This document shows, in pieces, positions 3,700-60,448 of a stretch of DNA of 64,000 nucleotides. This stretch comes from Candidatus Omnitrophota bacterium (lineage in GTDB: Bacteria > Omnitrophota > Gorgyraeia > Duberdicusellales > 4484-171): the NCBI GenBank assembly GCA_021735655.1, contig JAIPGM010000003.1, positions 1 through 64,000 of the forward strand, written 5' to 3'. The number at the start of each line of letters is the position of its first letter. The first letter of the stretch is position 1. The notes under the pieces were generated by a model, which saw only the letters and a program-made list of their open reading frames with translations, made no database searches and was not told the DNA's origin. A program made the position numbers and the translations under genes.

Positions 3700-4629
3700 A
3701 TGGAAAAGCAAGCCAAGATTTATATTGCCGGACACACAGGATTAGTTGGAAGAGCTCTTTTACGTGAGCTTAAAAAAGAAGGTTATGCTAATTTATTAAC
3801 CAGAACCCACCAAGAGCTAGATCTCACCCACCAGACAGAAGTTGAAAGATTTTTTAGCCAAGAGCGTCCTGACTATGTATTTTTAGCTGCGGCTCGAGTT
3901 GGCGGAATCGGCGCAAACAACAGTTACCCGGCAGAATTTATCTATGAAAACCTTATGATTCAGGCTAACGTTATTAATTCAGCATATACCTCAGGGGTTA
4001 AGAAGCTTTTATTCTTTAGCAGTGCTTGCATGTATCCTAAGTATTGCCCTCAGCCAATGAAGGAAGATAGTTTATTGACAGGGTGCCTAGAGCTAACCAG
4101 CGAACCTTATGCTATAGCTAAAATCGCTGGGGTAAAAATGTGTGAGGCTTATAATCGTCAATACAAAACAGGATTTATCTGTATTATACCTTCAAATATT
4201 TATGGTCCTGACGATCATTTTGGTTCTCAAGATTCACATGTGCTTCCGGCTTTGATTGATAAATTTCATAAAGCTAAGATTGCCAATGAACCTTCAGTGA
4301 TAGTTTGGGGGAGTGGAAATTGTAAAAGAGAATTTATCTATGTAGATGATGTTGCTTCGGCTGCAATTTTTCTTATGAATTTATTTGAAATTCATTCTTA
4401 TGTTAATTTGGGATACGGAGAAGATATAACTATAAAAGAGCTAATTGTTGCAGTGAAAGAAATTGTCGGATATAAGGGCGAGATCGTGTTTGATAAGTCT
4501 AAGCCTGATGGAATTTTACGAAAAGCTCTAGATAGTAGCAGAATATTATCTTTTGGCTGGAAGCCAAAGACGTCTTTAGCTAGCGGGTTGGACAAGACCT
4601 ATAAGAGTTTTTTAAAAAAATTTAGTTAA
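3700..4629 (+). CDS. fcl: GDP-L-fucose synthase family 3,5-epimerase/4-reductase (Fcl/WcaG homolog)
   Basis: IYIAGHTGLVG, YVFLAAARVGGIGANNSYPAEFIYENL, QPMKE, EPYAIAKIAG and YNRQY are typical of Fcl. No gmd is seen in the window. Confidence 0.7.
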   Translation: MEKQAKIYIAGHTGLVGRALLRELKKEGYANLLTRTHQELDLTHQTEVERFFSQERPDYVFLAAARVGGIGANNSYPAEFIYENLMIQANVINSAYTSGVKKLLFFSSACMYPKYCPQPMKEDSLLTGCLELTSEPYAIAKIAGVKMCEAYNRQYKTGFICIIPSNIYGPDDHFGSQDSHVLPALIDKFHKAKIANEPSVIVWGSGNCKREFIYVDDVASAAIFLMNLFEIHSYVNLGYGEDITIKELIVAVKEIVGYKGEIVFDKSKPDGILRKALDSSRILSFGWKPKTSLASGLDKTYKSFLKKFS

Positions 4630-4680
4630 GGTTGTGTTTTGCGATAGAAAGTAATATTTATTTTAATATAAGGAGGTTAT

Positions 4681-5520
4681 GTGAAGAAAACAATTAAAAG
4701 TTTAAGAAAAAAAGCTGAAAACATAAGGAAAAATGTTTTAAATATGTGTATTCAGGCCCAAACCGGGCATGTTACCTCTTCTTTGTCTTGTATTGATATT
4801 TTGGTTTCTTTATACCATGGTAATGTCATGCGTCATAGGCCTAATGATCCTGGTTGGGAACAAAGGGATCGATTTATTTTAAGCAAAGGCCAAGCATCTC
4901 CGGCTTTGTATGCAGTTTTGGCTGATTGTGGTTATTTTAATTCGAAAGAACTTAATAATTTTGCTCAAAAAGGCGGAAATTTTGGCGTACACCTACAAGA
5001 TAGTGTACCCGGCGTTGAAATAACTTCTGGCTCACTGGGGCAAGGGTTTGGTTTGGCAGCTGGATTAGCATTAGGGGCTAAAAAGAATCGCAATCTTCAC
5101 TTAGTATTCACTTTACTAGGAGATGGTGAATGTTATGAGGGGTCTATTTGGGAGACAGCTATGTTCGCGGCTCATAATCAATTGAATAATCTCGTAGCAA
5201 TAGTTGATAGAAATTATCTCTGCGTAACTGATTTTACTGAAAATTTAATTGCTTTAGAGCCGTTAGATAAGAAATGGCAAGCTTTTGGTTGGGAAGTTAA
5301 ACGTATTAATGGTCATTCGATCGAGGAAATAATTTCAACTTTATGTCCTTTGCGTTCTAGGCCTTCAAGCAAGCCTCTTGTTGTTATCGCCGATACTGTA
5401 AAGGGAGAAGGAGCTGCTTCTTTGTGCTATCAGCCGTTATGTCATGGAATAGCACCTAAAGGAGAAGAAGCTGAAATAGCTATCAGAGAATTAGAAGGGA
5501 GGTTATGCGATTATGAATAA
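4681..5520 (+). CDS. transketolase, N-terminal (ThDP pyrophosphate-binding) subunit
   Basis: GTG start after an AAGGAGG RBS. Motifs GHVTSSLSCIDIL, DRFILSKGQASPALYAVLA and GSLGQGFGLAAGLA. Confidence 0.85.
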   Translation: MKKTIKSLRKKAENIRKNVLNMCIQAQTGHVTSSLSCIDILVSLYHGNVMRHRPNDPGWEQRDRFILSKGQASPALYAVLADCGYFNSKELNNFAQKGGNFGVHLQDSVPGVEITSGSLGQGFGLAAGLALGAKKNRNLHLVFTLLGDGECYEGSIWETAMFAAHNQLNNLVAIVDRNYLCVTDFTENLIALEPLDKKWQAFGWEVKRINGHSIEEIISTLCPLRSRPSSKPLVVIADTVKGEGAASLCYQPLCHGIAPKGEEAEIAIRELEGRLCDYE

Positions 5521-6451
5521 TATTTCTCAGCGTGATGCTTTTTGGAATAAGGTGTATGACAAGGCTGTTTTAGATAAAAATATCATCGTTGTCTCAGCTG
5601 ACATGGGTGCTCCAGCCCTTGATCAATTCAGGAAAGATTTTCCCTCACAGTTTGTTAATGTCGGAATTGCTGAGCAGAATGGTATAGCTATATCAGCTGG
5701 CCTTGCTTTAAGTGGTAAAAAAGTTTTTGTTTATGCGATAGCCCCGTTTATTACTTTACGTTGCTTGGAGCAAATAAGAGTAAACAATGCGATTATGAAC
5801 ATACCGATAACTATAGTTGGGGTTGGTGCCGGATTTGGTTACGAGGATTCAGGGCCGACGCATCATATTACTGAAGATCTTGCGATTATGCGTTCTATGC
5901 CCAACATAACAATTCATAGTATATCTGATAGTATCATGTCTCGAGCCATGGCTGTTATATCGTGCCAAATGAAGAACACTAATTACGTACGTTTAGATCG
6001 TTTAGTCCTTCCGAATTTATATCAAGAAAATGAGGATTTTTCTAAAGGTCTGTCAATTTTAGAAGAGTCAAAAGAAGCTTATATCATTGCAACCGGAAGT
6101 ATGGTTCATGTTGCTTTAGAGGCAGCAAAAAATATTAAGCAGCAAGGCTTTGATATCGGCGTAATTGATGTTTATTCTTTGCCGTTTAACGAAAAATTAC
6201 TTATTGATTTTATAAAAGGAGTTAAAAGGGTCGTGACCTTGGAAGAACATTTTCTTCCCGGTGGCCTTGGCAGTGCGGTCTGTGAAGTCATGCAGGATAA
6301 GGGGGTGTTATTGCCGGTTAAACGAATTGGCTTGTCTATGGAAAAGGGCTATTGCTATAAATATGGTGGCAGAGATATCATAAGAAGTTATTATGGTGTT
6401 GATTCTGGGTCCGTGACAAATATAGTGTCTGATTTTTTACAAGGAAAGTAA
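5513..6451 (+). CDS. transketolase, C-terminal (pyrimidine-binding) subunit
   Basis: GIAEQNGIAISAGLALSGKK and GPTHHITEDLAIMRSMPN. Overlaps the upstream gene by 8 nt. Confidence 0.85.
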   Translation: MNNISQRDAFWNKVYDKAVLDKNIIVVSADMGAPALDQFRKDFPSQFVNVGIAEQNGIAISAGLALSGKKVFVYAIAPFITLRCLEQIRVNNAIMNIPITIVGVGAGFGYEDSGPTHHITEDLAIMRSMPNITIHSISDSIMSRAMAVISCQMKNTNYVRLDRLVLPNLYQENEDFSKGLSILEESKEAYIIATGSMVHVALEAAKNIKQQGFDIGVIDVYSLPFNEKLLIDFIKGVKRVVTLEEHFLPGGLGSAVCEVMQDKGVLLPVKRIGLSMEKGYCYKYGGRDIIRSYYGVDSGSVTNIVSDFLQGK

Positions 6452-6454
6452 ATT

Positions 6455-7387
6455 ATGAAAATACTAGTAACTGGTGGAGCGGGCTATTTAGGTTCAATAA
6501 TGGTTCCTCGTTTATTAAATTCCGGTCACGATGTCGTCGTTGTTGATTCTTTTGCCTATCGTCAATCATCTTTGCTTGATTGTTGCAATAATAAGAAGCT
6601 GACTATAGAAAGGGCCGATACTTTAGATGAGCGAGTAATCGCGCGGCAAATTAAAAATGTTGATGCTATTTTTCCTTTAGCTTGTCTTACCGGTGCACCG
6701 CTTTGCGATAACCAGCCTGATGAGGCCAGACGCGTAATTGTTGAAGCCATAAGATTAATTCTTAAGTTGCGTTCTAAAGGACAAGCCATTATTTATCCCA
6801 CTACTAATAGCGGCTATGGTATAGGCCAAAAAGGTATTTTTTGTAACGAGAAAACTCCTTTGCGGCCAGTTTCGCTTTATGGAAAACTGAAAGTTGAGGC
6901 TGAGAAAATTTTGCTCGATGCGGGAGATTGTATTACTTTACGATTAGCAACTGCTTTTGGTATAAGTCCACGAATGCGTTTGGATTTATTAGTTAATGAT
7001 TTTACTTATCGAGCCGTAACAGATAAGTTCATAATTCTTTTTGAATCACATTTTAAAAGAAACTATATCCATGTTCGCGATGTGGCTAAAGCTTTTATCC
7101 ATGGATTGGATAATTTCCAAACCATGAAAAACCAAGCCTACAATGTTGGATTAAGCGATGCAAATTTAAGCAAGTGGGAGTTATGTCAGGAGATTAAAAA
7201 ACAAGTTCCTGATTTTTATTTTATTGAGGCCGAAGTCGGCCAAGATCCCGATAAAAGAGACTATATTGTAAGCAATGCGAAAATCGAAAATAAAGGCTTT
7301 AAGCCCGATGTTTCGTTGGAGGATGGTATAACTGAGTTGATAAAAGGATACCAAATCATTAGAAAGAATCAATATTCTAATGTCTAA
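6455..7387 (+). CDS. NAD-dependent epimerase/dehydratase family protein (extended SDR)
   Basis: ILVTGGAGYLGS Rossmann motif and YGKLK catalytic YxxxK. Confidence 0.7.
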   Translation: MKILVTGGAGYLGSIMVPRLLNSGHDVVVVDSFAYRQSSLLDCCNNKKLTIERADTLDERVIARQIKNVDAIFPLACLTGAPLCDNQPDEARRVIVEAIRLILKLRSKGQAIIYPTTNSGYGIGQKGIFCNEKTPLRPVSLYGKLKVEAEKILLDAGDCITLRLATAFGISPRMRLDLLVNDFTYRAVTDKFIILFESHFKRNYIHVRDVAKAFIHGLDNFQTMKNQAYNVGLSDANLSKWELCQEIKKQVPDFYFIEAEVGQDPDKRDYIVSNAKIENKGFKPDVSLEDGITELIKGYQIIRKNQYSNV

Positions 7388-7390
7388 ATT

Positions 7391-8887
7391 ATGATGTCAT
7401 TGGATCTAGTATTAGTAAATCCGAGTAGTAAAAAGCAGATGTATGGCAGTTTAAGCGATAGCTTAATCGGTATTGAACCACCAATATGGACAGCTTTGAT
7501 CGCTGCCTTTGTGCGCCGGAAAGGTTTTTCGGTAGCGATAATTGATGCTGTAGCTGAAGGTTTGGGCCCAACAGAAGTTTTTAATAGAATAAGGGAGTAT
7601 AACCCAAGAGTTATCGGCCTTGCTGCGATTGGAGCTAATCCTTCGGCGGCATCAACACCAAAAATGCTTGCTGTAAGAAGTCTATTGAATTTAATTCAAG
7701 AGAATAATTTTGATTCCAAGACCGTTCTTTACGGTATTCATCCTTCGGCTTTAGCCGAAGAAACCCTCAGAGAGGAGAAGATTGATTTCGTAATTAAAGG
7801 AGAAGCTTTTTATCCAATTTTAAATATTTTAAAAGAAACAAAATCGCAAGATATAGACGATTTATCGTTTAATAAGGGCATTTGTTATCTTCGGGATAAA
7901 AAGTTTATTTCTGGCGGTTGGGCTAAAGTAGTTGAGAATTTAGATGAATTACCCTTCGCAGCTTGGGATCTTTTACCGATGGATAAGTATCGAGCTCATA
8001 ATTGGCATTGTTTTGGCCATATAAGACAACGTTCTCCTTATGCCATAATTTACACTAGTTTTGGCTGCCCTTTCGATTGTAAATATTGTAATATTCATAG
8101 TCTTTACGGTGGTTCTCCGGGCATACGTTATCGTAGCCCTGAAAAGGTGGTCGAGGAAATCGATTTTCTAGTGAAAAATTATAATATTAAGCATTTAAAA
8201 ATACTTGATGAGCTTTTTGTTTCAGAAAAATCTAGGGTCGATAGATTTTGTGATCTGCTTATTAAACGTAACTACCGAATAAATATATGGGCTTATGCCA
8301 GAGTTGATACGGTTAATGAATTATTGCTAAAAAAATTAAAACAAGCTGGAGTAAATTGGATTTGCTATGGGTTCGAGGCAGCTAGCAAAAAAGTCCGGGA
8401 CGGCGTATCTAAGGGTAGGTTTGACCAGGAAGCTATTTATGAAGCTGCTCGTATAACTCATGATGCCGGGATTCATATAATCGGTAATTTTATGTTTGGT
8501 CTTCCTGATGATGATCAACAATCTATGCAAGAAACATTAAATTTAGCTAAAAAGTTACGTTGCGAATACGTGAACTTTTATACTACCATGGCTTATCCTG
8601 GTTCAAAGCTTTATCAAGAAGCAATAAAGCAGAAAAAGCAACTTCCGAAAAGCTGGTCAGGGTACTCTCAGTTTAGTTACGAAACTTTACCTTTGCCAAC
8701 AAAATATCTTTCTAGTGCCGAAGTTCTAAGCTTTAGAGACCGAGCTTTCGTGGATTATTATAGCGATCCCGAGTATAGCGCTATGATTAAAGAAGTTTTT
8801 GGCGAGGATACAGTTGAGCATATAAAAGATATGCTTAAATATAAATTAAAAAGGAAGCTGTTGGAAACTGAAGGAGTAAAGACATGA
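7391..8887 (+). CDS. B12-binding domain radical SAM protein (class B methyltransferase-like)
   Basis: N-terminal cobalamin-binding-like region, then CPFDCKYC (CxxxCxxC) near residue 225. 498 aa. Confidence 0.75.
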   Translation: MMSLDLVLVNPSSKKQMYGSLSDSLIGIEPPIWTALIAAFVRRKGFSVAIIDAVAEGLGPTEVFNRIREYNPRVIGLAAIGANPSAASTPKMLAVRSLLNLIQENNFDSKTVLYGIHPSALAEETLREEKIDFVIKGEAFYPILNILKETKSQDIDDLSFNKGICYLRDKKFISGGWAKVVENLDELPFAAWDLLPMDKYRAHNWHCFGHIRQRSPYAIIYTSFGCPFDCKYCNIHSLYGGSPGIRYRSPEKVVEEIDFLVKNYNIKHLKILDELFVSEKSRVDRFCDLLIKRNYRINIWAYARVDTVNELLLKKLKQAGVNWICYGFEAASKKVRDGVSKGRFDQEAIYEAARITHDAGIHIIGNFMFGLPDDDQQSMQETLNLAKKLRCEYVNFYTTMAYPGSKLYQEAIKQKKQLPKSWSGYSQFSYETLPLPTKYLSSAEVLSFRDRAFVDYYSDPEYSAMIKEVFGEDTVEHIKDMLKYKLKRKLLETEGVKT

Positions 8888-9954
8888 TTATTAGCAGAAC
8901 TCCGTTTAGAATATCTTTTTTTGGTGGTGGAACAGATTACCCGGTATGGTACAGGGAAAATGGTGGAGCAGTTATCTCAGCTTCGATAAATAAATATTGT
9001 TATATAACCTGTCGTTACTTGCCGCCATTTTTTGATTATAAATATAGAATAGTTTATTCGCAACGCGAGGCTGTAAAAAGCCTTTCCGATATAAAGCATC
9101 CCTCGGTTCGGGAGTGTTTAAATTTTATGAATTTAGGTAAAGGCGTTGAAATACATCATGATGGAGATCTGCCGGCTAGAACCGGTCTTGGTTCGAGTTC
9201 AGCTTTTACGGTAGGCTTGCTAAATGCTTTGTATGCTTTAAAGGGCAAGATGGTAACTAAAAAGCAGTTGGCGCTTGAAGCTATCCATGTTGAGCAAGAA
9301 AGAATTAAAGAGCATGTTGGTTCTCAAGACCAAACTATTGCCGCTTTTGGTGGATTTAACAAGATTACTTTTGCTCGGGATAATAATATTGAGGTTCAAC
9401 CGGTGACTTTACATTTTGAGAAATTAAAACACCTACAAAGACACTTAATGTTATTTTTTACTGGATTCTCTCGTACGGCTTCTGAAATTGCCCAAGAGCA
9501 AATAAATCAAACGCCTAATAGAACAAAGGAATTAGGTAACATGCATGATATGGTTTATGCCGCTATGGATATTTTAAACAGCAATCACGAAGATTTTAGT
9601 GATTTTGGTAAATTACTTAATGAAAGCTGGAAGATAAAAAGAAGCTTAACTTCTAAAATTTCAACGCCATTGATTGACCAGATTTATGAAACTGCTATGT
9701 GGGCCGGGGCAAAGGGTGGAAAAATTCTAGGGGCCGGCGGCGGCGGATTTATTTTATTTTTTGTTAATCCAGAATTTCAGCAAAAAGTAAGGCTAGCCCT
9801 TAAGAATCTTCTTTATGTTCCTTTTCGTTTTGATACCTTGGGTAGTCAAATAGTTTATTATGCTCCGGATCATCAATCTTGGTCAGATTCGAGTAAAGAT
9901 ATTTTAGCGGCTGAAGAAATTATTAGCAATGAGTCAACAGTAATTGAGAAATGA
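8884..9954 (+). CDS. GHMP-family sugar kinase (D,D-heptose 7-phosphate kinase HddA-like)
   Basis: RTPFRISFFGGGTDYP N-terminus and PARTGLGSSSA GHMP motif. Confidence 0.7.
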   Translation: MIISRTPFRISFFGGGTDYPVWYRENGGAVISASINKYCYITCRYLPPFFDYKYRIVYSQREAVKSLSDIKHPSVRECLNFMNLGKGVEIHHDGDLPARTGLGSSSAFTVGLLNALYALKGKMVTKKQLALEAIHVEQERIKEHVGSQDQTIAAFGGFNKITFARDNNIEVQPVTLHFEKLKHLQRHLMLFFTGFSRTASEIAQEQINQTPNRTKELGNMHDMVYAAMDILNSNHEDFSDFGKLLNESWKIKRSLTSKISTPLIDQIYETAMWAGAKGGKILGAGGGGFILFFVNPEFQQKVRLALKNLLYVPFRFDTLGSQIVYYAPDHQSWSDSSKDILAAEEIISNESTVIEK

Positions 9955-10658
9955 ATATTTTAAAATCTATAGATGTGGTTGTTCTTTGTGGTGGAAAAGG
10001 TGAGAGGTTACAATCAGTTTTAGGAGAAAAACCCAAAGTTTTAGTTGAAGTTTCTGGAAGGCCTTTCTTATCTATTCTAATTGACAATTTTAGGAAATTT
10101 GGTTTTAACCGTTTCATTTTAAGTGTGGGCTATAGACGGGATAAGATTATCGATTATTTTAAAGATAGAGCGGATATCTTTTTTTCTCAAGAGGAAATTG
10201 CTTTAGGAACCGGTGGCGGCTTAAAGAAAGCCGAAAGTTTAGTCAAAAGTAGTAGTTTTTTAGTTGTCAACGGCGACTCTTTCTGTGATTTAGATTTTAA
10301 TCGATTGTTTAGTTTTCACAGGGAAAAAAGAGCTATTTTAACTATGGCTTTGGTTAGAACCACAAAAGTTAAGGATTATGGAACTGTTACTATCGACAGC
10401 ACAGGAAAGATAAAAAGCTTTCAAGAAAAAGTGGAGGGGCTTAACTTTTGTTTAGCTAATGCTGGAATATATCTAATGGATAAAGAAATATTCAAGCAGA
10501 TGCCGCAAAAAAAAGTTTTTTCTTTAGAACGCGATTTATTTCCTAAAACAGAAAATAGCTTTGGCTTTGTAACAGAAGCTAAATTATATGATATCGGAAC
10601 GCCAGAGCGGTATGTTCAGGCTAAGGAGTTTTTTAACTGTAAAGGGGCCATGTCGTGA
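9951..10658 (+). CDS. sugar-1-phosphate nucleotidyltransferase (HddC-like)
   Basis: VVLCGGKGERL G-x-G-x-R motif. 235 aa, single-domain NTP transferase. Confidence 0.7.
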   Translation: MNILKSIDVVVLCGGKGERLQSVLGEKPKVLVEVSGRPFLSILIDNFRKFGFNRFILSVGYRRDKIIDYFKDRADIFFSQEEIALGTGGGLKKAESLVKSSSFLVVNGDSFCDLDFNRLFSFHREKRAILTMALVRTTKVKDYGTVTIDSTGKIKSFQEKVEGLNFCLANAGIYLMDKEIFKQMPQKKVFSLERDLFPKTENSFGFVTEAKLYDIGTPERYVQAKEFFNCKGAMS

Positions 10659-12100
10659 AAGTAATGTTATTGTTTCCAAAGTGGACTAGTGCTTATGGTT
10701 TATTTTCATATTTTGCTAAGAAGGCATCTCGCTGGCCACCTTTAAATCTAGCTTACATTGCGGCTGTAGCTGAAAATAACGGCCATATGGTAAAAATAGT
10801 TGATGGAGAGGCCGAAGATTTACCAACGGCAAAAATTTTGGAACGTATAAATGAGTTTAAGCCAGATATAATCGGCATGACTGCTACTACACCTTTTTTC
10901 CATGTAGTGGTTAAACTCGCTGAGGCGATTAAAGGGTTTAATAAAAGCATTCCGATAGCTATAGGCGGAGCGCATATAACTATTTTACAAAAGGAAGATT
11001 TTAATCTTTGTTTTGATTATGCCTTTCTTGGTGAAGCCGAAGAATCATGGGCTCAGTTTCTAGATAGATATGGTTCTGGGAAAGATATGTCAGACATAAA
11101 AGGCCTTCTTTATCGTAAAGGTGATGAGGTTGTTTGTACTGGTCTTTCTGAACCAATTAAGAATATTGATTCAATTCCTTATCCAGCGAGGCATTTACTA
11201 AAATTAGATAAATATAATATAGGCACTTTAAAAGGTGTAAAAAATTTTACGACTATTATGACAACTAGAGGTTGCCCGTTTGAATGTATATTTTGTAGCA
11301 CAAAAGTGTTCGGTTCCAGGATTCGTCGAAGGTCTTTGGATTCGGTAATGGATGAGATTAAATCAATAATTTATAATTTTAATATTAAACATTTTACCTT
11401 TTTGGATGACACTCTAACACTTGATAGAAATTATATTTTACAATTATGTAAGCGAATACAGGCCGAAGATTTTTCAATCACTTTTGATGGCAGTACTAGA
11501 GCTAATTTAGTGGATGATGAATTAATTGCTGAAATGGCTAAAGCAGGGCTAATAAGAATTTCTTTTGGTTTAGAATCAGTAGATCCTCGCATAAGAAAGA
11601 TTATTAAAAAAGAAGTGCCGCTTGAAAGTTATCAAAAGGCAAATCAAATAACTAATAAATATGGAATAGAGACGCTTAATTCAGTTATGCTTGGCTTACC
11701 AGGCGAAACAGCCGAAACTGTAGAAAGTACTCTGGGTTACTTACGTAATGCGCGTCATATTCAGCAAGCTAATCTTAGTATAGCCACTCCTTATCCAGGT
11801 ACGGAACTTTATCGGATGGCTAAAGAGGGGCAACACGGGTTACGGTTATTGACTGAAGATTTTTCAAGGTATCGTCGTTATGGATCAGCAGTTATGGAGG
11901 TGAATGAATTGTCGGCTCAAGATCTTATTGATTTACAAAACGACGGATTTCTTAGGATATATTCAGCTCCCTGGCGGATTATTCCAATGGTAAGAAAGAG
12001 TGGTATTTTAGGAGCATTGCTTACTTTTTCCAGACTGGCCAAGAAGATTAAAAGGCAGCTAAGGGTTAAGAAGGCAACAAAAGATAATAACAGCAATTAG
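10655..12100 (+). CDS. B12-binding domain radical SAM protein (second copy)
   Basis: TRGCPFECIFC CxxxCxxC motif after an N-terminal B12-binding-like domain. 481 aa. Confidence 0.75.
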   Translation: MKVMLLFPKWTSAYGLFSYFAKKASRWPPLNLAYIAAVAENNGHMVKIVDGEAEDLPTAKILERINEFKPDIIGMTATTPFFHVVVKLAEAIKGFNKSIPIAIGGAHITILQKEDFNLCFDYAFLGEAEESWAQFLDRYGSGKDMSDIKGLLYRKGDEVVCTGLSEPIKNIDSIPYPARHLLKLDKYNIGTLKGVKNFTTIMTTRGCPFECIFCSTKVFGSRIRRRSLDSVMDEIKSIIYNFNIKHFTFLDDTLTLDRNYILQLCKRIQAEDFSITFDGSTRANLVDDELIAEMAKAGLIRISFGLESVDPRIRKIIKKEVPLESYQKANQITNKYGIETLNSVMLGLPGETAETVESTLGYLRNARHIQQANLSIATPYPGTELYRMAKEGQHGLRLLTEDFSRYRRYGSAVMEVNELSAQDLIDLQNDGFLRIYSAPWRIIPMVRKSGILGALLTFSRLAKKIKRQLRVKKATKDNNSN

Positions 12101-12127
12101 TTGTATACAGAATAAGGGCAGAAAAGT

Positions 12128-13072
12128 ATGTTTTTTATTTCATCATCTTGCACAAGAAAAAGAAAAGTTAACGAGGCAATTCAGGACTTATTAGGTTTTG
12201 GTGTTAAGAATATCGAATTATCTGGCGGTCTTGTTATTTATGATCAATGGGAGGCTGATTTTCGTCTTTTGAGGGATTCGGAAGAACTAAATATTTTGAT
12301 ACATAATTATTTTCCACCGCCAGCACTTAAAAAAGATGCTTTTGTGCTCAATCTCGCTTCAGATAATGAGCAGCTTAAGCAAAAAAGTTTTGAACTTATT
12401 AAGAAGTCATTTAAATTTATAAGTGATTTTGGTATTTCTTTATATAGCGTTCACGGAGGCCATAGTGTTGATATGCTTCCGGAGTTAAAAGATATGCATT
12501 TTATTGTAGATAAGGAGTCTAAAAGAGATAAATTTCAAGCAAGTTTTAATTTTTATGAAAGTCTAGAAAGGATAGTCGCAGAAAGTTTGCCTGATAGTAA
12601 AAAATTAGCGGTTGAGAATCTTTTTCCATTCAGTAAAGAACAGAATTATTGCTTGATGACTTTACCCGAAGAGATAGAGAAATTTTTAAAATATAGTCGA
12701 AAATACAAAAATGTTGGTTTGTTGTTAGATTTGGGCCATTTAAATGTTGCTGGAAAAGCTTTTAATTTTGACCCGGCTAAGTGTGCCGAAAGAATATTAT
12801 CTGAATATTCCGATAAAATTTTTCAATTGCATCTTTCCGACAATGATGGGACCTTTGATTTCCACAAAGTTTGTAGTAGCAATTCTTGGCAGCTCAAATT
12901 AGTCGAAAATTTCTATGAAGTTGTAAAACACGTTCCGATTGTGTTTGAGTGGCATTGCAAGACAAATTCAAACGAGCAGATTAGAGATGGAATTAGCTAT
13001 ATTAAATCTTATTTTGGCCAGACTGCTTTTACTGAGTTAGAGGACAGTAAACATTTAATTTATGAGAACTAA
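12128..13072 (+). CDS. xylose isomerase-like TIM-barrel sugar phosphate isomerase/epimerase
   Basis: VENLFPF, LLLDLGHLNV and LHLSDNDG metal-ligand motifs of the AP_endonuc_2 / xylose-isomerase-like family. Confidence 0.55.
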   Translation: MFFISSSCTRKRKVNEAIQDLLGFGVKNIELSGGLVIYDQWEADFRLLRDSEELNILIHNYFPPPALKKDAFVLNLASDNEQLKQKSFELIKKSFKFISDFGISLYSVHGGHSVDMLPELKDMHFIVDKESKRDKFQASFNFYESLERIVAESLPDSKKLAVENLFPFSKEQNYCLMTLPEEIEKFLKYSRKYKNVGLLLDLGHLNVAGKAFNFDPAKCAERILSEYSDKIFQLHLSDNDGTFDFHKVCSSNSWQLKLVENFYEVVKHVPIVFEWHCKTNSNEQIRDGISYIKSYFGQTAFTELEDSKHLIYEN

Positions 13073-14273
13073 TACAGAAAATACTAAGTTATCTTTTGGT
13101 ACGATGTCAGTAACTGCTAAGGCAAAACAGTTAGTTACCGAAGCAATGGATTCAGGAATGCTTTCTCAGGGAAAGTATGTAAGAGAATTTGAAGAAAGGT
13201 TTGCCGATTTGGTTGGCGTAAAGGAAGCGGTTGCCGTGTCAACTGGAACCGAAGCCGATACTTTAGCTTTAGCCGTACTTTATGATTTTGGAGCAAAAAG
13301 AGGCGATGAAGTAATTATTCCGGCATTGTCATTCGTTGCAACTGGAAATGCAGTGTTACATGCTGGCTTTAAGCCAGTTTTTGTAGATATTCAAAGAGAA
13401 ACTTTAAATATTAACCCTGATGAAATAGAGGCAGCAATTACCAAAAAAACAAAGGCTATTATGCCGGTACATTTAATGGGTAAACCGGCTGAAATGGATA
13501 GAATAATTGAAATAGCTAAGAAGCATAATTTGTGCGTTGTTGAAGATGCCGCTGAGGCTCATGGCGCAGTATATAAAGGTAAGAATATTGGAGCTTGGGG
13601 TGATATGGCTGCCTATAGTCTTTATGCCGCCCATATTATTTCTACAATTGAGGGCGGCATTGTTGTTACTGATCGTAAAGATTTTGCTGAGGTTTTAAGA
13701 TCTTTGCGTTCACACGGACGATTTTGTAAATGTAAGCAATGTGTATTAAATGTCGGTAAGGGCGAATGCCTAAAGCGTTTCAAAGGCAATAAAGATCAAA
13801 GATTTGATTTTGAACGCATCGGTTATTCTTCAAAGATGAATGAACTCGAAGCAGCAGTCGGATTAGGAAATCTTGATATTTATCAAGATATCTTTAAGAA
13901 ACGCAGAGAAAACCTTATCTATTTAATTGGGCAATTTTCTAGATTCGCACCTTATCTTTTTACGATAAACGAAGAAGATCATGAAACTGTTGGCCCGCAC
14001 GCATTTCCAGTTATTGTTGGGGAAGATACAGGCTTTAGCCGCGATGAATTAGTTTTTTACTTAAAATCAAAGGGTATTGATTCGAGAAATCTTTTTTTAT
14101 CAATGCCAACTCAATGCCGAGGGTTTGAATTTTTAGGTTATAAACTTGGGGAATTTCCTAATGCTGAATATATAGCCGATAATGGTTTTCATATCGGCGT
14201 GCATCAAGGCTTGGGAAGAAGAGAGCTTGAGTATTTCGTAGAAGGGACTAAGCAATTCTTGGATAGACGGTGA
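13062..14273 (+). CDS. DegT/DnrJ/EryC1-fold PMP-dependent sugar 3-dehydrase (E1/DdhC-like), not an aminotransferase
   Basis: DegT fold, but His replaces the Schiff-base Lys (SLYAAHIISTIEGG). A Cys cluster, RSHGRFCKCKQCVLNVGKGECLKRF, parallels the E1 [2Fe-2S] region. Confidence 0.6.
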   Translation: MRTNTENTKLSFGTMSVTAKAKQLVTEAMDSGMLSQGKYVREFEERFADLVGVKEAVAVSTGTEADTLALAVLYDFGAKRGDEVIIPALSFVATGNAVLHAGFKPVFVDIQRETLNINPDEIEAAITKKTKAIMPVHLMGKPAEMDRIIEIAKKHNLCVVEDAAEAHGAVYKGKNIGAWGDMAAYSLYAAHIISTIEGGIVVTDRKDFAEVLRSLRSHGRFCKCKQCVLNVGKGECLKRFKGNKDQRFDFERIGYSSKMNELEAAVGLGNLDIYQDIFKKRRENLIYLIGQFSRFAPYLFTINEEDHETVGPHAFPVIVGEDTGFSRDELVFYLKSKGIDSRNLFLSMPTQCRGFEFLGYKLGEFPNAEYIADNGFHIGVHQGLGRRELEYFVEGTKQFLDRR

Positions 14274-14297
14274 ATGTCGTTAGGGAAATAGATTAGT

Positions 14298-15368
14298 ATG
14301 GTAACACTTGTAATTCCTACAAAAAACCGTTCTGATTTTTTAATCAGAATTTTACGATATTACGCAGACACAAACTATCAGTACACTATTTGTATAGGTG
14401 ATTCTAGTGAACAGTTTCATTTAGATACTACGAAGAAATTTATTGATAGTTTAAATGGTAAATTAAAAATTATGTATTTCGAGTATCCTGGATTAGGTAT
14501 TTCTTTATGCTTTAAAAAATTAATTAATCAAGTTAAAACACCCTACGCAGCTATAGTGTTGGACGATGATTTTATCATTGAGCAATCCCTCAGGAAGTGT
14601 GTTGATTTTTTGGAAAATAATCTTGATTATAGTTCTGCTGGTGGCAGGGCTATAGTTTTTTCTCTTAAAGAACCTGGCGCTCATGGTGAAATTAAAAATG
14701 TAGGCGTTTATTCGCAGAGAAATATTGAGGGAAAAACTGCCAGCCAGAGGCTGGCTGACCATTTAAAAAACTATACAGTTACTCTTTTTTCTGTGCATAG
14801 GATAGAAACATGGCGTCATCTTTGGCAAAATGTAGTTAAGTCTTCCGAGAGAGCATTTATGGAAGAGCTAATACCTTGTTGTCTTTCGGTAATACACGGC
14901 AAGAAAAAAGTTTTTGATGATTTATATTTAGTTCGTCAAGATCATGAGCAGCGTGCTTTCCATATGGATACATATGATTGGGTAACTCATCAGGATTGGT
15001 TTAATTCCTATAATATATTTCATGATTCCTTAGAAGAAGCTTTGGCGTATAAAGATGGCATTAGTAGGGATGAAGCGCATGGGGTTATAAAAGAAGGTTT
15101 TTGGAAATATTTAAATAAGAGTTTTGTCTCGAAATATGATATACGCTATAAAACTAAGATTGAAGGCATTAATCTAAAAAAAATTATAAAACGTAGCCCC
15201 ACAGTTTTTAATATAGCTAATTATATACAATTATTGTTTCGAAGGCACTTAAAAGTTTCAACTTTACTCAATAAAAAATCGCCATATTGTAGTAATTTTG
15301 CAGCAGTGTATCGTGCGGTTACAGAAAAGCCTCTTTTTGGAAATAAGGTTTATTGCAATATTGATTAG
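14298..15368 (+). CDS. putative glycosyltransferase (GT-A/GT2-like)
   Basis: VTLVIPTKNRSDFL N-terminus and a DDD-like acidic motif (IVLDDDF). Confidence 0.4.
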   Translation: MVTLVIPTKNRSDFLIRILRYYADTNYQYTICIGDSSEQFHLDTTKKFIDSLNGKLKIMYFEYPGLGISLCFKKLINQVKTPYAAIVLDDDFIIEQSLRKCVDFLENNLDYSSAGGRAIVFSLKEPGAHGEIKNVGVYSQRNIEGKTASQRLADHLKNYTVTLFSVHRIETWRHLWQNVVKSSERAFMEELIPCCLSVIHGKKKVFDDLYLVRQDHEQRAFHMDTYDWVTHQDWFNSYNIFHDSLEEALAYKDGISRDEAHGVIKEGFWKYLNKSFVSKYDIRYKTKIEGINLKKIIKRSPTVFNIANYIQLLFRRHLKVSTLLNKKSPYCSNFAAVYRAVTEKPLFGNKVYCNID

Positions 15369-15388
15369 AATAGCACTATTACCCAAAG

Positions 15389-17194
15389 ATGAAACACTTT
15401 AAGAATATTTTATTAAAAAATAAGGCTCTTGTAGTTGTTATTTTTATTTCTGGAATAATTGCTTCTTTCATGGAGGGATTAGGCTTAGGTTTAATTTTGC
15501 CTCTTTTAGAGGGGGTTAAGGGTAAGATGGCTTCGGGGGTTCCTTTTCCTTTCAGTATTATTTCAAATTTTTTTAGCACAATGGCTCTTGGAGAGAGAAT
15601 AAGATTAGTCGCATTTTTTTTAGTTATTATCACCCTCTTCAAGGGGGCAGCTTTTTACCTTAATACTTTATCAGTAACTCGTCTTCAGGTAGCGGCAATT
15701 AAGTATTATCGAATGAAGTGTTACGATCAGTTAATGAAGTTGGGCATGAGTTATCTTAATGGACAAAAAATGGGTCATTTGCAAACTATTGTTATTACTC
15801 ATACTGAGAGATTAGGTTCGTTAGTCAACATAGTTGCTAGTCTTGTTTTTAGAAGCTGTACTTTAATAATGCTTATGGTGATGTTGTTTATTTTATCTTG
15901 GAAGATGACCATGATTTCTCTTTTTATTGTTGTTTTTGCTTCAGTATTATTGCGCAAGATTGCCCAGCGGGCTGAAAAATCCGGTAAAAGGCTTACGGAG
16001 TCTATTAAAGAACTTAACCGAACAATTTTAGATACTCTTCTAGGGATGAAAATAATCCGTTTCTTTTGCCGTCAAAAAGACATGACTAGAGAGTTTCAGG
16101 CTAAAGTTGAAGATGTGAATAGGAACATGTATGCGCTTGCTAGGGCTCGACGGTCGCTTCAGCCTCTTTTTGAAACTTTAGGAGTAACAAGCTTTGCTTT
16201 AATTCTTTTAATCGGATCGTTTTTATTAATGTCAGAGAACAAGGGATTAGGCCTAGAGGTTGTTTTAACTTTTATTTTAATATTTTTTAGAATTCTTCCT
16301 CCGGCAATGGCTCTTAATGATGCTCGGGTAGGCATTAGAGGAGACTTACCCTATTATCGTCAAGCCCATCAGTTTATAGATAGTCAGGATAAGTCTTATT
16401 TATCCGGCGGGAGCAAAACAATCGAAAGATTATCTAAAAAAATTGAATTTCAAAATTTGGAATTTAGCTATAATCTTAAAGAGCTTATTGTTTTGAAAAA
16501 TTTATCATTTAGTATTCCTAAAGGTGCTAAAGTCGGAATCGTTGGCCATTCAGGATGCGGAAAATCTACAATTGTTGAGTTAATTTTACGTTTTTATGAT
16601 CCGCAAAAGGGAAATATTTTTATTGATGGTTTTGATTTAAAAGATTTGAATTTGAATTCTTGGCGTAGACTCGTGGGTGTTGTTTCTCAGGATACGTTTC
16701 TTTTTCATGACACTATCAGGGCTAATATTATCTTTGCTAAACCGGATTCTACTCAGCAAGAAATAGAATACGCAGCAAGAAAAGCGCATGCTTACGATTT
16801 CATTCAAAATTTACCTAAACGCTACGATACTCTAGTTGGTGAAAGAGGGGTGCTGCTGTCGGGTGGTCAAAGGCAAAGAATTGCTATTGCCCGGGCTATC
16901 ATCATGGATCCTGATATACTTATTTTTGACGAAGCAACTTCTAGCTTGGATACAGAGTCGGAAGGGATAGTCCAAAAGGCGCTTGATGAGGTTGGAGAGG
17001 GTAAGACAGTGATTACCATTGCTCATCGTCTTTCTACTATTTATGATTCGGATATAATTTTAGTTTTTGATTCTGGAGAAATAGTCCAACAAGGAACACA
17101 CCGAGAGCTAATTAAGCAGGGAGGCCTTTATGGCAAGTTAGTTAAGATGCAAACTATGGATGATTTAGAGCCTAAAAATATTTTTATAAGATGA
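15389..17194 (+). CDS. ABC transporter permease/ATPase, MsbA/PglK-like exporter
   Basis: N-terminal TM domain. Walker A GHSGCGKST, signature LSGGQRQRIAIARA, Walker B ILIFDEATSSLD. Confidence 0.85.
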   Translation: MKHFKNILLKNKALVVVIFISGIIASFMEGLGLGLILPLLEGVKGKMASGVPFPFSIISNFFSTMALGERIRLVAFFLVIITLFKGAAFYLNTLSVTRLQVAAIKYYRMKCYDQLMKLGMSYLNGQKMGHLQTIVITHTERLGSLVNIVASLVFRSCTLIMLMVMLFILSWKMTMISLFIVVFASVLLRKIAQRAEKSGKRLTESIKELNRTILDTLLGMKIIRFFCRQKDMTREFQAKVEDVNRNMYALARARRSLQPLFETLGVTSFALILLIGSFLLMSENKGLGLEVVLTFILIFFRILPPAMALNDARVGIRGDLPYYRQAHQFIDSQDKSYLSGGSKTIERLSKKIEFQNLEFSYNLKELIVLKNLSFSIPKGAKVGIVGHSGCGKSTIVELILRFYDPQKGNIFIDGFDLKDLNLNSWRRLVGVVSQDTFLFHDTIRANIIFAKPDSTQQEIEYAARKAHAYDFIQNLPKRYDTLVGERGVLLSGGQRQRIAIARAIIMDPDILIFDEATSSLDTESEGIVQKALDEVGEGKTVITIAHRLSTIYDSDIILVFDSGEIVQQGTHRELIKQGGLYGKLVKMQTMDDLEPKNIFIR

Positions 17195-19578: not shown

Positions 19579-19579
19579 T

Positions 19580-20656: not shown

Positions 20657-20659
20657 ATA

Positions 20660-25891: not shown

Positions 25892-25897
25892 ATAATT

Positions 25898-26875: not shown

Positions 26876-26888
26876 AAAGGATAAGGAT

Positions 26889-31597: not shown

Positions 31598-31612
31598 AAT
31601 AAAAGCAGGGTA

Positions 31613-33848: not shown

Positions 33849-33887
33849 GTTTACAAATAGGATTTTTGGCTAGAGAAAGGAGTAATA

Positions 33888-35087: not shown

Positions 35088-35115
35088 AGGTTGAGGATAG
35101 TAAGAAGGATTTAAA

Positions 35116-37171: not shown

Positions 37172-37181
37172 GGTTAAAACA

Positions 37182-45051: not shown

Positions 45052-45082
45052 TAGTGTTGTTTTGTGCAGAGCGAATAAATTT

Positions 45083-58490: not shown

Positions 58491-58501
58491 AGCTTTAAAT
58501 A

Positions 58502-60435: not shown

Positions 60436-60448
60436 TAAGGAGTAGACA

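Follow-up and report, generated by a model that had tools for sequence, protein, structure and literature searches.

The six genes at positions 7391-14273 of the window (the whole 64,000-nucleotide stretch that was analysed, from an Omnitrophota bacterium) are the middle part of a longer operon, predicted to build and remodel a GDP-heptose, and are not a self-contained unit. The functional unit begins at ~3700 and thereby also takes in a reductase resembling GDP-fucose synthase and a ThDP enzyme of split, transketolase-like type. An earlier note, made from the sequence alone, had treated the six genes as the unit; the upstream ThDP enzyme and two SDRs belong to it too. That the span of ~3700-15400 is a GDP-heptose tailoring operon is a reading that we regard as evenly balanced. 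It would make the gene set a GDP-heptose/3-deoxysugar tailoring system with no described counterpart, and our literature searches, in agreement with the note, returned no described pathway having this gene set. The features are as follows.

3700..4629, + strand: GDP-L-fucose-synthase-like SDR, probable epimerase/C4-reductase on GDP-keto-heptose (NCBIfam, PDB, co-occurrence)
4681..5520, + strand: N-terminal subunit of a split, divergent transketolase-like ThDP enzyme (Pfam Transketolase_N)
5513..6451, + strand: C-terminal subunit of the divergent transketolase-like ThDP enzyme (Pfam Transket_pyr and Transketolase_C)
6455..7387, + strand: Cj1427-like GDP-heptose C4-dehydrogenase, an SDR (PDB 6VO6/6VO8)
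7391..8887, + strand: rSAM1, class B radical SAM protein and anchor of the conserved cassette (PF02310 and PF04055)
8884..9954, + strand: HddA-like GHMP anomeric sugar kinase of the heptose-7-phosphate 1-kinase type (GHMP_kinases_N and GHMP_kinases_C)
9951..10658, + strand: HddC-like sugar-1-phosphate (probably guanylyl) transferase (NTP_transferase)
10655..12100, + strand: rSAM2, second class B radical SAM protein, accessory to the rSAM1 cassette (PF02310 and PF04055)
12128..13072, + strand: metal-dependent TIM barrel, probably a keto-sugar epimerase, lineage-specific accessory (AP_endonuc_2)
13062..14273, + strand: E1-type PMP-dependent sugar 3-dehydratase with a variant four-Cys loop (DegT_DnrJ_EryC1, 320 bits)
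14298..15368, + strand: glycosyltransferase with a TIGR04440 domain, probable user of the product (NCBIfam TIGR04440)
15389..17194, + strand: MsbA/HepA/PglK-like ABC exporter or flippase, probably linked (Pfam ABC_membrane and ABC_tran)

All six ORFs of 7391-14273 lie on the + strand, at the positions and with the domains (Pfam) that the note had described. The junctions among them measure -4, -4, -4, +27 and -11 nt, the third (9951-10658/10655) becoming +5 instead of -4 if the ATG at 10664 of the source record is used. The note's statement that all six are translationally coupled is nearly correct. Upstream, the SDR at 6455-7387 ends 3 nt from rSAM1 and the ThDP pair ends 3 nt from that SDR, while downstream the gaps are +24 to the glycosyltransferase and +20 to the ABC gene. 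Since these flanking junctions are equally tight, the six genes form no closed unit. The glycosyltransferase scored 177 bits against TIGR04440 (cutoff 70) and is syntenic in loci L006 (58%) and L169 (43%), as is the ABC gene, whose product scored 466 bits for the HepA family and 412 bits for MsbA, both below cutoff.

Farther downstream lie NeuB-domain fusion proteins (17191-19578 and 20660-22423). These would be put to use if the modified heptose, instead of being transferred unchanged, were set free and joined to PEP by the NeuB-domain fusions, and the resulting ten-carbon ulosonic acid were CMP-activated. Such a route is suggested by the order kinase, transferase, (TIM barrel), E1-like enzyme, glycosyltransferase, ABC protein, FAD/NeuB fusion, NAD-binding protein and NeuB/CMP-transferase fusion, which the window shares with L006 and L169, and by TIM-barrel homologues located within nonulosonate clusters (L170). 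We consider it improbable, however, as the NeuB fusion (at least 50% identity) is missing from 40 of 40 loci seeded on rSAM1, no NeuC/LegG-type hydrolase is adjacent (the sole one, at 30431-31597, is in a canonical legionaminic-acid-like set), and the juxtaposition may just reflect a 64-kb glycan mega-cluster.

Co-occurrence was assessed in 40 independent metagenomic loci, each 8 kb or longer and seeded on rSAM1 homologues. The gene arrangement is not due to chance, because the same neighbours recur near rSAM1 homologues in these loci. The conserved core is composed of rSAM1, the Cj1427-like SDR (25 of the 40 loci), the kinase (HddA-like, 27/40), the transferase, the His-type 3-dehydratase and a ThDP pair (30/40; PDH-E1 alpha/beta-like in 23 and transketolase-like in 7). 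Dozens of metagenomic loci, from bacteria and archaea that are uncultured anaerobes, contain this set, which spans Omnitrophota, Nitrospirota, Elusimicrobia and Methanoperedens. Homologues of the GDP-fucose-synthase-like SDR with 40% identity or more are found close to rSAM1 in 18/40. rSAM1 homologues with 57-66% identity come from Omnitrophota, Desulfobacterales and other MAGs, and rSAM2 homologues with 58-74% identity from Omnitrophota, Methanoperedens, Elusimicrobia, Nitrospirae and Kiritimatiellaeota. The second protein, rSAM2, is added only in some cases and was found only beside rSAM1: it is present in 2 of the 40 rSAM1-seeded loci, and wherever an rSAM2 homologue (53% identity or more) had sufficient sequence on its flanks, an rSAM1 homologue was there too. 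The "doubly" C-methylated product predicted by the note would thus be a minority variant at best. Gene order near rSAM1 varies among loci and gives no clue to the reaction sequence, a point against the pathway proposed below.

Based on the HddA/HddC-like kinase and transferase, the Cj1427 homologue upstream and GmhA/GmhB in related loci, the base sugar is almost certainly a GDP-heptose and not a generic 6-deoxyhexose. The top PDB matches of the kinase (8884-9954) are the heptose kinases 3K85, 4USK/4USM and 4N3O, and those of the transferase (9951-10658) are 5XHW/6JQ8, annotated as "6-deoxy-D-mannoheptose pathway protein" (136 bits, full length), in keeping with the anomeric sugar-activation pair recognised in the note. 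The SDR at 6455-7387 aligns without gaps to PDB 6VO6/6VO8 over 308 residues with 56% identity (408 bits, E 1.6e-121); we linked 6VO6 to Campylobacter jejuni Cj1427 via the primer-encoded peptide RAFKMMKV. The second SDR (3700-4629) scored 451.8 bits for NCBIfam GDP-L-fucose synthase (cutoff 500) and 346 bits for PDB 1BSV. In the archaeal Methanoperedens locus L007 a GmhA-like protein (196 bits, cutoff 276) and GmhB (187 bits, cutoff 178) are encoded inside the cassette, and GmhA/GmhB are also present in further related loci. Counting against a heptose are the NCBIfam HddA (145.7 bits, cutoff 600) and HddC (138.9 bits, cutoff 300) scores, both far under the NCBI equivalog cutoffs, and a search for GmhA/GmhB in the 64-kb window that found none.

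If the six genes instead acted alone, their product would be a 3,6-dideoxyhexose nucleotide with two added C-methyl groups (or one both methylated and epimerised), and the TIM barrel would serve the core route as an isomerase. Their domain content fits this product, and GenK and Fom3 are precedents for C-methylation by class B radical SAM enzymes. Yet the six genes include no 4,6-dehydratase, the adjacent Cj1427-type C4-dehydrogenase would keep the 6-OH, the kinase and transferase are of heptose type, and the related loci lack the TIM barrel (40/40) and mostly rSAM2 (38/40). We regard a dideoxyhexose as a poor prospect.

Both rSAM proteins, by their domain content, are uncharacterised enzymes with class B architecture, which upholds the note's assignment. 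B12-binding PF02310 scored 58.8 bits in rSAM1 (cutoff 32.1) and 76.4 bits in rSAM2, Radical_SAM PF04055 scored 62.7 and 95.1 bits, respectively, and the CxxxCxxC motif is invariant among homologues (C226/C230/C233 in rSAM1, C207/C211/C214 in rSAM2). The two proteins are 27% identical. The AF2 model of rSAM1 (pLDDT 88) has AprD4, TsrM, MgmA, OxsB, CysS and TokK as its best folds. Among NCBIfam models, BchE and HpnJ score best, which would place the rSAM genes in an unrelated cofactor or lipid pathway embedded here by chance. This we judge to be extremely improbable: the scores are 3-4 fold under the cutoffs, sugar-nucleotide neighbours are conserved across phyla, and no tetrapyrrole or hopanoid genes occur within 64 kb. 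The conserved synteny effectively refutes it, and the glycan setting proposed in the note stands.

Characterised class B radical SAM enzymes are mostly methylases, and C-methylation is the activity that we would predict for rSAM1 and rSAM2. Against this, no NCBIfam radical SAM family model reached its cutoff for either protein, and the best sequence match of both (51 and 91 bits), as well as the best fold match of rSAM1 (TM 0.73-0.79), is AprD4 (6FD2), a sugar diol-dehydratase that does not methylate and is not known to use cobalamin. One or both rSAMs might thus be radical lyases, mutases or cyclases, giving a chain-extended or carbocyclic higher sugar and no C-methyl sugar. Options include AprD4-like 1,2-diol dehydration, in the side chain or the ring of the heptose, and C-C rearrangement like that of OxsB, HpnJ or BchE; an rSAM could, for instance, generate a keto or aldehyde group for extension by the transketolase-like or PDH-E1-like ThDP enzyme. 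The BchE and HpnJ models, neither of them a methylase, and the ThDP pairs in 30/40 rSAM1 loci are consistent with this, and aldehydes are the usual acceptors of transketolase, DXS and E1-type ThDP enzymes. However, the AprD4 sequence alignment extends over the radical SAM core alone (residues 201-413 of rSAM1 and 172-423 of rSAM2), the N-terminal domains align with cobalamin-binding OxsB and TokK and pass the Pfam B12-binding cutoff, and BchE and HpnJ score far under their cutoffs. With methylases prevailing among the class B enzymes characterised so far, we hold a non-methylating role to be fairly unlikely.

The DegT-fold protein (13062-14273) carries His191 at the position of the catalytic Lys (SLYAAH(191)IISTIEGG), and its Cys-rich loop, C222/C224/C227/C236 (CxCxxCx9C), is kept in 17 homologues. 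Its best solved relative is the E1 dehydrase 3BCX (E 3e-60, 207 bits), followed by ColD at 177 bits, while NCBIfam RfbH scored 257.6 bits (cutoff 423). These features agree with the E1-kind PMP 3-dehydratase that the note had read from the His-for-Lys exchange. Nearly all of ~45 aligned DegT-family neighbours of rSAM1 have His for Lys; those with the four-Cys loop are of E1 type, and those that lack it are of ColD type. Counting against the assignment, no E3-type reductase was found in the window or the rest of the contig examined. The gene for the TIM barrel (12128-13072) is outside the conserved core (0/40 rSAM1 loci); in the window as in L169 and L170, it lies directly 5' of a DegT gene. 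Its AF2 model (pLDDT 93.9) retrieved with Foldseek the D-tagatose-3-epimerase-like MJ1311 (3WQO), ketose 3-epimerases, UlaE and YcjR, and invariant residues include E163, D201, H235 and E274. The modelled fold resembles ketose/keto-sugar epimerases and not an aldose-ketose isomerase belonging to the core route; the note had called the protein an isomerase.

The N-terminal ThDP subunit (4681-5520) and the C-terminal one (5513-6451) have the split transketolase entries 6YAK (215 bits) and 6YAJ (150 bits) as PDB matches. The pair might be an ordinary pentose-phosphate enzyme that supplies sedoheptulose 7-phosphate and branches no sugar. This would fit the genuine split transketolase as top match, the use of sedoheptulose 7-phosphate as GDP-heptose precursor (PMC10680097) and a transaldolase nearby in L007. 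We nevertheless find it quite unlikely. In the N-terminal subunit the GDGE..N ThDP/Mg motif is kept but the SKGH His is replaced by Gln; the sugar-phosphate-binding Ser and His are substituted (G-AP, VGAG) in 5513-6451 and 15 cassette homologues, and the substrate-phosphate Arg is often missing too, whereas the housekeeping transketolase pair in L007 retains all three ligands. In 23/40 loci a PDH-E1-like pair takes its place, and we know of no dedicated transketolase in C. jejuni heptose clusters. The C. jejuni pathway paper leaves transketolase unmentioned (PMC10680097). Precedents for E1, ThDP enzyme and reductase acting together are the yersiniose/erwiniose route (PMC9306805) and AviB1/B2 and Pau11/12 (PMC4753412). 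Reduction of C4 by the GDP-fucose-synthase-like SDR, if it occurs, would make a branch there impossible, which counts against ThDP branching at that carbon.

We propose the following pathway. Judging from homology, GmhA isomerase and GmhB phosphatase would be supplied from other genome regions, the Cj1427-like SDR would oxidise C4, and the E1-type PMP/[2Fe-2S] dehydratase would remove the 3-OH to give GDP-3-deoxy-4-keto-heptose, a compound obtained in vitro with Cj1427 and the C3-dehydratase of C. jejuni (PMC10680097). The TIM barrel may epimerise a centre beside the keto group, the phosphate-blind transketolase-like enzyme may put a two-carbon unit on the keto-sugar as in YerE and AviB1/B2, and the GDP-fucose-synthase-like SDR may reduce a keto group. 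The two cobalamin-type rSAMs would modify unactivated carbons, most likely by C-methylation, with rSAM1 responsible for the conserved modification and rSAM2 for an extra one, and the adjacent glycosyltransferase would put the product into a surface glycan. This explanation, predicted from genes, has in our estimate equal chances of being right or wrong as a whole.

The class B sugar C-methyltransferases GenK, GenD1 and Fom3 act on activated or glycosidic sugar-like substrates. Together with TokK, CysS, TsrM, MgmA and OxsB they share with the rSAMs an N-terminal cobalamin-type domain and a CxxxCxxC core, and fold matches to solved class B enzymes reach TM 0.60-0.69. The rSAMs are nonetheless distant in sequence (PDB matches to methylases of ~50 bits or less), and the known sugar methylases belong to antibiotic pathways, whereas rSAM1 and rSAM2, methylases by prediction, come from a cell-surface glycan operon. 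AprD4, the radical SAM 1,2-diol dehydratase of apramycin biosynthesis, converts a sugar ring diol to a deoxy-keto sugar; the similarity is in the radical SAM core, unlike the B12-binding-like N-terminal domains, and C3 deoxygenation in the operon is already assigned to the PMP enzyme.

AviB1/AviB2 and Pau11/Pau12 are PDH-E1 alpha/beta-like pairs proposed to attach C-4 acetyl branches to deoxysugars (PMC4753412). Both, like the window pair, are two-subunit ThDP enzymes beside keto-sugar-forming genes, and they are of the PDH-E1 type seen in 23/40 related loci, but the window pair is transketolase-like and the actinomycete pairs have their proposed function on dTDP-deoxyhexoses. The ascarylose/yersiniose/erwiniose route employs E1 (DdhC) with E3, the ThDP carboligase YerE/ErwE and the reductase YerF/ErwF on CDP-3,6-dideoxy-4-keto-glucose (PMC9306805, PMC8987622). 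The common logic is that a PMP/[2Fe-2S] 3-dehydratase supplies the 3-deoxy-4-keto sugar nucleotide on which a ThDP enzyme and an SDR act afterwards. Here the base is GDP-heptose instead of CDP-glucose, the ThDP enzyme is split and transketolase-like (or PDH-E1-like) instead of an ALS-type flavoprotein, the operon has no detected E3 reductase and has added radical SAM enzymes, and the E1 Cys pattern CxCxxCx9C is without the distal Cys. A canonical erwiniose-type set is found separately in the window, from 55991 to past 64000.

We know of no ThDP enzyme in C. jejuni heptose clusters. The C. jejuni capsular GDP-heptose pathway comprises GmhA, HddA, GmhB, HddC, Cj1427, the HS:5 C3-dehydratase and GFS-like C4-reductases (PMC10680097, PMC10440746); radical SAM and ThDP enzymes are both unmentioned in PMC10680097, and the pathway, unlike the operon, has no radical SAM enzyme. 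Its gmhA and gmhB have no counterparts in this window. Its 3-dehydratase uses PLP and glutamate like ColD, has no Fe-S cluster and is naturally paired with a 4,6-dehydratase and not with Cj1427, in contrast to the E1-type window enzyme with its four-Cys loop. Both systems include a kinase and a transferase of the HddA and HddC types, Cj1427 or its homologue (56% identity), a 3-dehydratase of the His type and an SDR resembling GDP-fucose synthase, and they share the predicted intermediate GDP-3-deoxy-4-keto-heptose.

The six open reading frames that the earlier note had described between 7391 and 14273 all exist, and their Pfam domains match that description gene by gene.

The six genes and their Pfam domains
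7391-8887, + strand, rSAM1: B12-binding and Radical_SAM
8884-9954, + strand, kinase: GHMP kinase N and C domains
9951-10658, + strand, transferase: NTP_transferase
10655-12100, + strand, rSAM2: B12-binding and Radical_SAM
12128-13072, + strand, TIM barrel: xylose-isomerase-like TIM barrel
13062-14273, + strand, DegT-fold E1-like protein: DegT_DnrJ_EryC1

The junctions between these genes measure, in order, -4, -4, -4 (or +5), +27 and -11 nt. Similarly tight junctions extend upstream to 4681 and downstream beyond 17194, and a strand survey of the window placed all called ORFs over the 64 kb on the + strand, with GC skew above 0 in every 2-kb bin. Tight junctions on both sides and the single orientation indicate that the six genes are a slice of a longer array, and the entire window forms a single, very long glycan mega-cluster whose genes share one direction. 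Scans for promoters and terminators yielded signals no stronger than those of shuffled sequence. Identical or near-identical proteins have been deposited from a Candidatus Omnitrophota MAG (MCF7907776.1 for rSAM1, MCF7907779.1 for rSAM2 and MCF7907780.1 for the TIM barrel), and these records carry generic names only. Large ORFs of the window without a Pfam match include 23608-24894, 33888-35087, 38394-39434, 42092-44260, 46029-47828 and 53394-55127.

A PF02310 profile check bore out a B12-binding domain in both radical SAM proteins, with 58.8 bits for rSAM1 and 76.4 bits for rSAM2 (cutoff 32.1); PF04055 was also above its cutoff in both. The CxxxCxxC cysteines (C226/C230/C233 in rSAM1, C207/C211/C214 in rSAM2) show no variation in either protein's alignment of 20 sequences, and the N-terminal domain is included in the sequence alignments to OxsB (34-385) and TokK (37-400). 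An AF2 model of rSAM1 (pLDDT 88) matched, in order, the folds of AprD4, TsrM, MgmA (the MCR glutamine methylase), OxsB, CysS and TokK. None of the curated NCBIfam models was above cutoff for either protein, the best being BchE and HpnJ. A class B architecture is thus well supported for both enzymes, unlike the reaction that they would catalyze. AprD4 is the top solved sequence match of both, limited to the radical SAM core, and this similarity means that the fold alone is no guarantee of cobalamin binding or methyl transfer. The main rival to a methylating role is that one or both enzymes would act as lyases or catalyze rearrangements, making the compound on which the ThDP enzyme encoded upstream of rSAM1 then works.

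Relatives of rSAM1 and rSAM2 are widespread. A full HMMER scan returned 3,770 representatives at E <= 1e-30, and rSAM1 shares 34-60% identity with over 150 clusters formed at 50% identity. Each protein has many homologues at 57-74% identity in MAGs, with hosts among the Omnitrophota, Desulfobacterales, Elusimicrobia, Nitrospirae, Kiritimatiellaeota, Chloroflexota and Methanoperedens. In loci with enough flanking sequence, an rSAM1 homologue always adjoins those rSAM2 homologues that share at least 53% identity. In a contig scan with the rSAM2 profile, the matches listed were mostly distant paralogues (30-40% identity), the only close relatives among them being those of L009, L010, L011, L018 and L024. 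A third B12-binding radical SAM gene lies on the source contig ∼2.6 kb upstream of the window start (L001 1-1132); its product, 525 aa as called, is 33% identical to rSAM2, and the gene, which lies close upstream of the rml genes, has an HTH protein and an SDR encoded after it. Another radical SAM protein with a SPASM/twitch domain (45062-46018, 318 aa) is encoded amid glycosyltransferase and methyltransferase genes.

The rSAM1 profile served as the seed for a survey of 40 metagenomic loci, each 8 kb or longer, and we compared every fetched ORF with the window proteins. A DegT-family gene was present in 34/40 loci and a two-subunit ThDP enzyme in 30/40, where 7 pairs are transketolase-like and PDH-E1-like pairs stand in for them in the other 23. 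The kinase was found in 27/40 loci, the Cj1427-like SDR in 25/40, and the transferase and the GDP-fucose-synthase-like SDR in 18/40 each, followed by GmhB (5/40), GmhA (4/40) and rSAM2 (2/40). Gene-adjacency statistics around rSAM1 revealed no preferred neighbor. The cassette is common to Methanoperedens archaea and to uncultured anaerobic bacteria of the Omnitrophota, Nitrospirota, Elusimicrobia and Desulfobacterota.

Several members of the cassette resemble enzymes of GDP-heptose metabolism. The Cj1427-like SDR (6455-7387), which stops 3 nt 5' of rSAM1, aligned with 6VO6/6VO8 along its full extent (408 bits, 56% identity, gapless, 308 residues), and the alignment with 6VO6 located its GxxGxxG and YxxxK motifs as GGAGYLG and YGKLK. 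The 6VO6 chain is tied to C. jejuni Cj1427 by the sequence RAFKMMKV, which a published Cj1427 primer encodes. Cj1427 is a GDP-heptose C4-dehydrogenase, with an enzymology set out in PMC10680097. The top solved relatives of the kinase are HddA-type heptose kinases and those of the transferase are HddC proteins, with both falling below the corresponding NCBIfam equivalog cutoffs (146 versus 600 and 139 versus 300, respectively). The GDP-fucose-synthase-like SDR (3700-4629) scored 452 bits against a cutoff of 500. A tblastn search with the GmhA and GmhB proteins of L007, a Methanoperedens locus, found neither gene in the window. GmhA and GmhB are present in related loci (L007, L102, L108, L111 and others) and could be encoded elsewhere in the window's genome. 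Locus L007 carries the whole cassette together with GmhA-like and GmhB proteins, which fits an archaeon that is unable to borrow both from LPS core synthesis. We also considered that a related locus, L005, combines a colitose pathway with rSAM1; this was dropped, as NCBIfam does not class the first SDR of that locus as a GDP-mannose dehydratase.

The DegT-fold protein had been noted for a His in place of Lys, and we found that His191 in SLYAAHIISTIEGG indeed aligns with the E1 His, at the site of the Schiff-base Lys of aminotransferases. This Lys to His change in the DegT/aspartate-aminotransferase fold is a feature defined for E1/SpnQ-type PMP-dependent sugar 3-dehydratases (PMC8987622), and the closest structure is the E1 dehydrase 3BCX. 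Cys222, 224, 227 and 236 sit in the loop that bears three of the E1 cysteines and are kept in 17 homologues, while the distal Cys of E1 (IEDCC) is replaced by Ala (VEDAAEAHG). Because of this Ala, we regard the predicted pattern as a variant of the four-cysteine [2Fe-2S] motif; the canonical E1 pattern is present in the window's second E1 gene at 63188. The ORFs of the window, and those of the contig downstream of it as far as it was read, showed no protein of the ferredoxin-NAD(P) reductase type that could be the E3 partner. SpnQ runs on general ferredoxin/flavodoxin systems (PMC8987622), so the missing E3 does not preclude 3-dehydratase function. Nearly all aligned DegT neighbors of rSAM1 have His for Lys, and they fall into two types, an E1-type with a conserved CxCxxCx8-9C loop and a ColD-type lacking the cysteines. 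A role of the E1-like protein as an rSAM2-specific partner was rejected, since many rSAM1 loci without rSAM2 carry E1-like genes.

The AF2 model of the TIM barrel (pLDDT 93.9) matched MJ1311, a D-tagatose-3-epimerase-like protein (3WQO; E 2e-14, TM 0.71-0.82), followed by DAE/DTE, UlaE and the 3-keto-glucoside 4-epimerase YcjR. By sequence position, the invariant residues E163, D201, H235 and E274 fit the E-D-H-E metal set of the ketose 3-epimerase-like family. The TIM barrel was found in 0/40 of the rSAM1-seeded loci. A DegT-fold gene immediately follows the TIM barrel in the window and its homologues in L170 (a nonulosonate cluster) and L169. Locus L169 has the kinase, transferase and E1-like genes in the window's order; the 12 kb that were read contain no radical SAM gene, but its contig starts just upstream. 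We read the TIM barrel as an accessory epimerase acting beside a keto group.

The genes at 4681-6451 encode a split transketolase-like ThDP enzyme that keeps the ThDP/Mg motif in its N-terminal subunit (LLGDGECY...VDRNY) and the activating Glu in its C-terminal subunit (IAEQ). The phosphate of sugar-phosphate substrates is bound in E. coli transketolase by Ser385, His461 and Arg520. We aligned the window protein and 15 cassette homologues with the Carboxydothermus split transketolase, human transketolase and a housekeeping pair from L007. Neither the window protein nor any of the 15 cassette homologues has the phosphate-binding Ser and His (G-AP and VGAG stand at these sites), and the Arg is missing in many, although they keep the ThDP/Mg motif and the activating Glu; the phosphate-binding residues are retained in the L007 housekeeping pair and in 6YAJ. 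One role for this enzyme would be to supply sedoheptulose 7-phosphate, as a transketolase might. The loss of the phosphate ligands and the PDH-E1-like replacement in sister loci speak against such a supply, making this role unlikely. Both observations, together with analogy to YerE/ErwE (PMC9306805) and to the ThDP enzymes AviB1/B2 and Pau11/12 (PMC4753412), instead argue for a putative carboligase acting on a non-phosphorylated acceptor. Within L007, a canonical split transketolase and a transaldolase (399-2794) are directly upstream of the divergent pair, so that both transketolase types exist side by side in one genome. The N-terminal subunits of the cassette enzymes (L102, L091, L007 (2795), L097, L009, L006 and other loci) form two subtypes; that of the window keeps two active-site His (TGH.., GVH.) and the other has ETR.. 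and GGIP.

From these homologies we propose that GDP-heptose would be formed first, and that C4 oxidation followed by PMP-dependent 3-deoxygenation would yield GDP-3-deoxy-4-keto-heptose, a compound already obtained in vitro with C. jejuni enzymes. In later steps the TIM barrel may epimerize this sugar, the ThDP enzyme may transfer a two-carbon unit and the GDP-fucose-synthase-like SDR may reduce a keto group. The radical SAM enzymes, rSAM1 being conserved and rSAM2 optional, would modify unactivated carbons, most likely by methylation, and the product would be used by a TIGR04440 glycosyltransferase and an ABC exporter. We tentatively suggest, as a possibility that is still open to considerable doubt, that the radical SAM and phosphate-blind ThDP enzymes make new C-C bonds on a nucleotide-activated 3-deoxy-4-keto-heptose, giving a C-methylated, branched or chain-extended (C8-C10) surface-glycan sugar.

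A second branched-deoxysugar set in the window fits the published erwiniose scheme, in which ErwE carboligates 4-hydroxy-2-oxopentanoate onto a 3,6-dideoxy-4-ketohexose (PMC9306805). Formation of the erwiniose skeleton through C7 methylation of a 6-deoxyheptose by rSAM1 was dropped in view of this ErwE route and of the separate set.

Erwiniose-type set (55991-64000, last gene running to position 12276 of L171)
within 55991-64000, + strand: glucose-1-P cytidylyltransferase, CDP-glucose 4,6-dehydratase-like SDR, MBL-fold protein
within 55991-64000, + strand: acetylating acetaldehyde dehydrogenase (ErwJ-like), 4-hydroxy-2-oxovalerate aldolase (ErwI-like)
60449-62230, + strand: YerE/ErwE-type ALS-type ThDP enzyme
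within 55991-64000, + strand: SDR (YerF/ErwF-like)
63188 to L171 12276, + strand: canonical E1/RfbH dehydrase, 436 aa, classical Cys pattern

The canonical E1/RfbH is just 34% identical to the cassette E1-like protein, and no E3 reductase was seen with this set. Further sugar genes include a trio at 17191-22423 with unusual NeuB fusions that is collinear, at 55-86% identity, in L169 and in another locus, L006, and a legionaminic-acid-like set.

NeuB fusion trio and legionaminic-acid-like set
17191-19578, + strand: fusion of an FAD/NAD-binding amine-oxidase/UDP-galactopyranose-mutase-like domain, NeuB synthase and SAF, 795 aa
19463-20656, + strand: NAD-binding protein without an NCBIfam match, 397 aa
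20660-22423, + strand: NeuB and CMP-transferase fusion, linked to the preceding two
24905-38381, + strand: legionaminic-acid-like set, part 1, three GFO/IDH/MocA oxidoreductases, CMP-transferase, SDR, NeuB, NeuC-like hydrolysing 2-epimerase
24905-38381, + strand: legionaminic-acid-like set, part 2, PglD-like acetyltransferase, HisF/HisH-like pair, CBS-nucleotidyltransferase (PtmE-like), LegB- and LegC-like enzymes

At 1730-3697 a dTDP-glucose 4,6-dehydratase (RmlB) is split by an intein with a LAGLIDADG homing-endonuclease domain (residues ∼130-418), its host being a bacterial (Omnitrophota) genome. The 3-dehydroquinate-synthase-like product of 40123-41262 scored above the aroB cutoff (318 versus 305) and also matches the AroB-related sugar phosphate cyclase family; its gene adjoins an SDR inside the glycan cluster, and it may be a sugar phosphate cyclase.

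To our knowledge, class B radical SAM enzymes act on sugars only in antibiotic pathways, and we know of no earlier B12-radical SAM chemistry in primary glycan biosynthesis. If our proposal is true, such chemistry operates in primary glycan rather than antibiotic biosynthesis. Heptose tailoring has been detailed only from Campylobacter, with its dehydrogenases, epimerases and reductases; the cassette brings heptose tailoring together with enzymes of the class B radical SAM kind and with a ThDP enzyme whose substrate site is altered. Dozens of loci from anoxic habitats carry the cassette, across several bacterial phyla and methane-oxidizing archaea, and this wide recurrence suggests a common, so far undescribed surface sugar in uncultured organisms. 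The cassette offers a defined set of enzymes whose likely substrate is already accessible enzymatically, and its study might reveal an unfamiliar regiochemistry of radical SAM enzymes on sugar nucleotides as well as acceptors of a new class for transketolase-like enzymes.

The earlier note knew of no described pathway with this gene set, and our literature search likewise found no paper on the combination. The YerE/YerF pathway employs an ALS-type ThDP flavoenzyme with a 3-deoxy-4-keto sugar nucleotide as its substrate, whereas the cassette enzyme is transketolase-like and not of the TPP_enzyme_N/M/C type. The backbone of the proposed pathway follows the GDP-heptose/3-deoxysugar logic already familiar from C. 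jejuni, colitose and ascarylose/yersiniose. What is new are the class B radical SAM enzymes, a transketolase-like enzyme that is phosphate-blind and the variant Cys pattern in the E1-like dehydratase.
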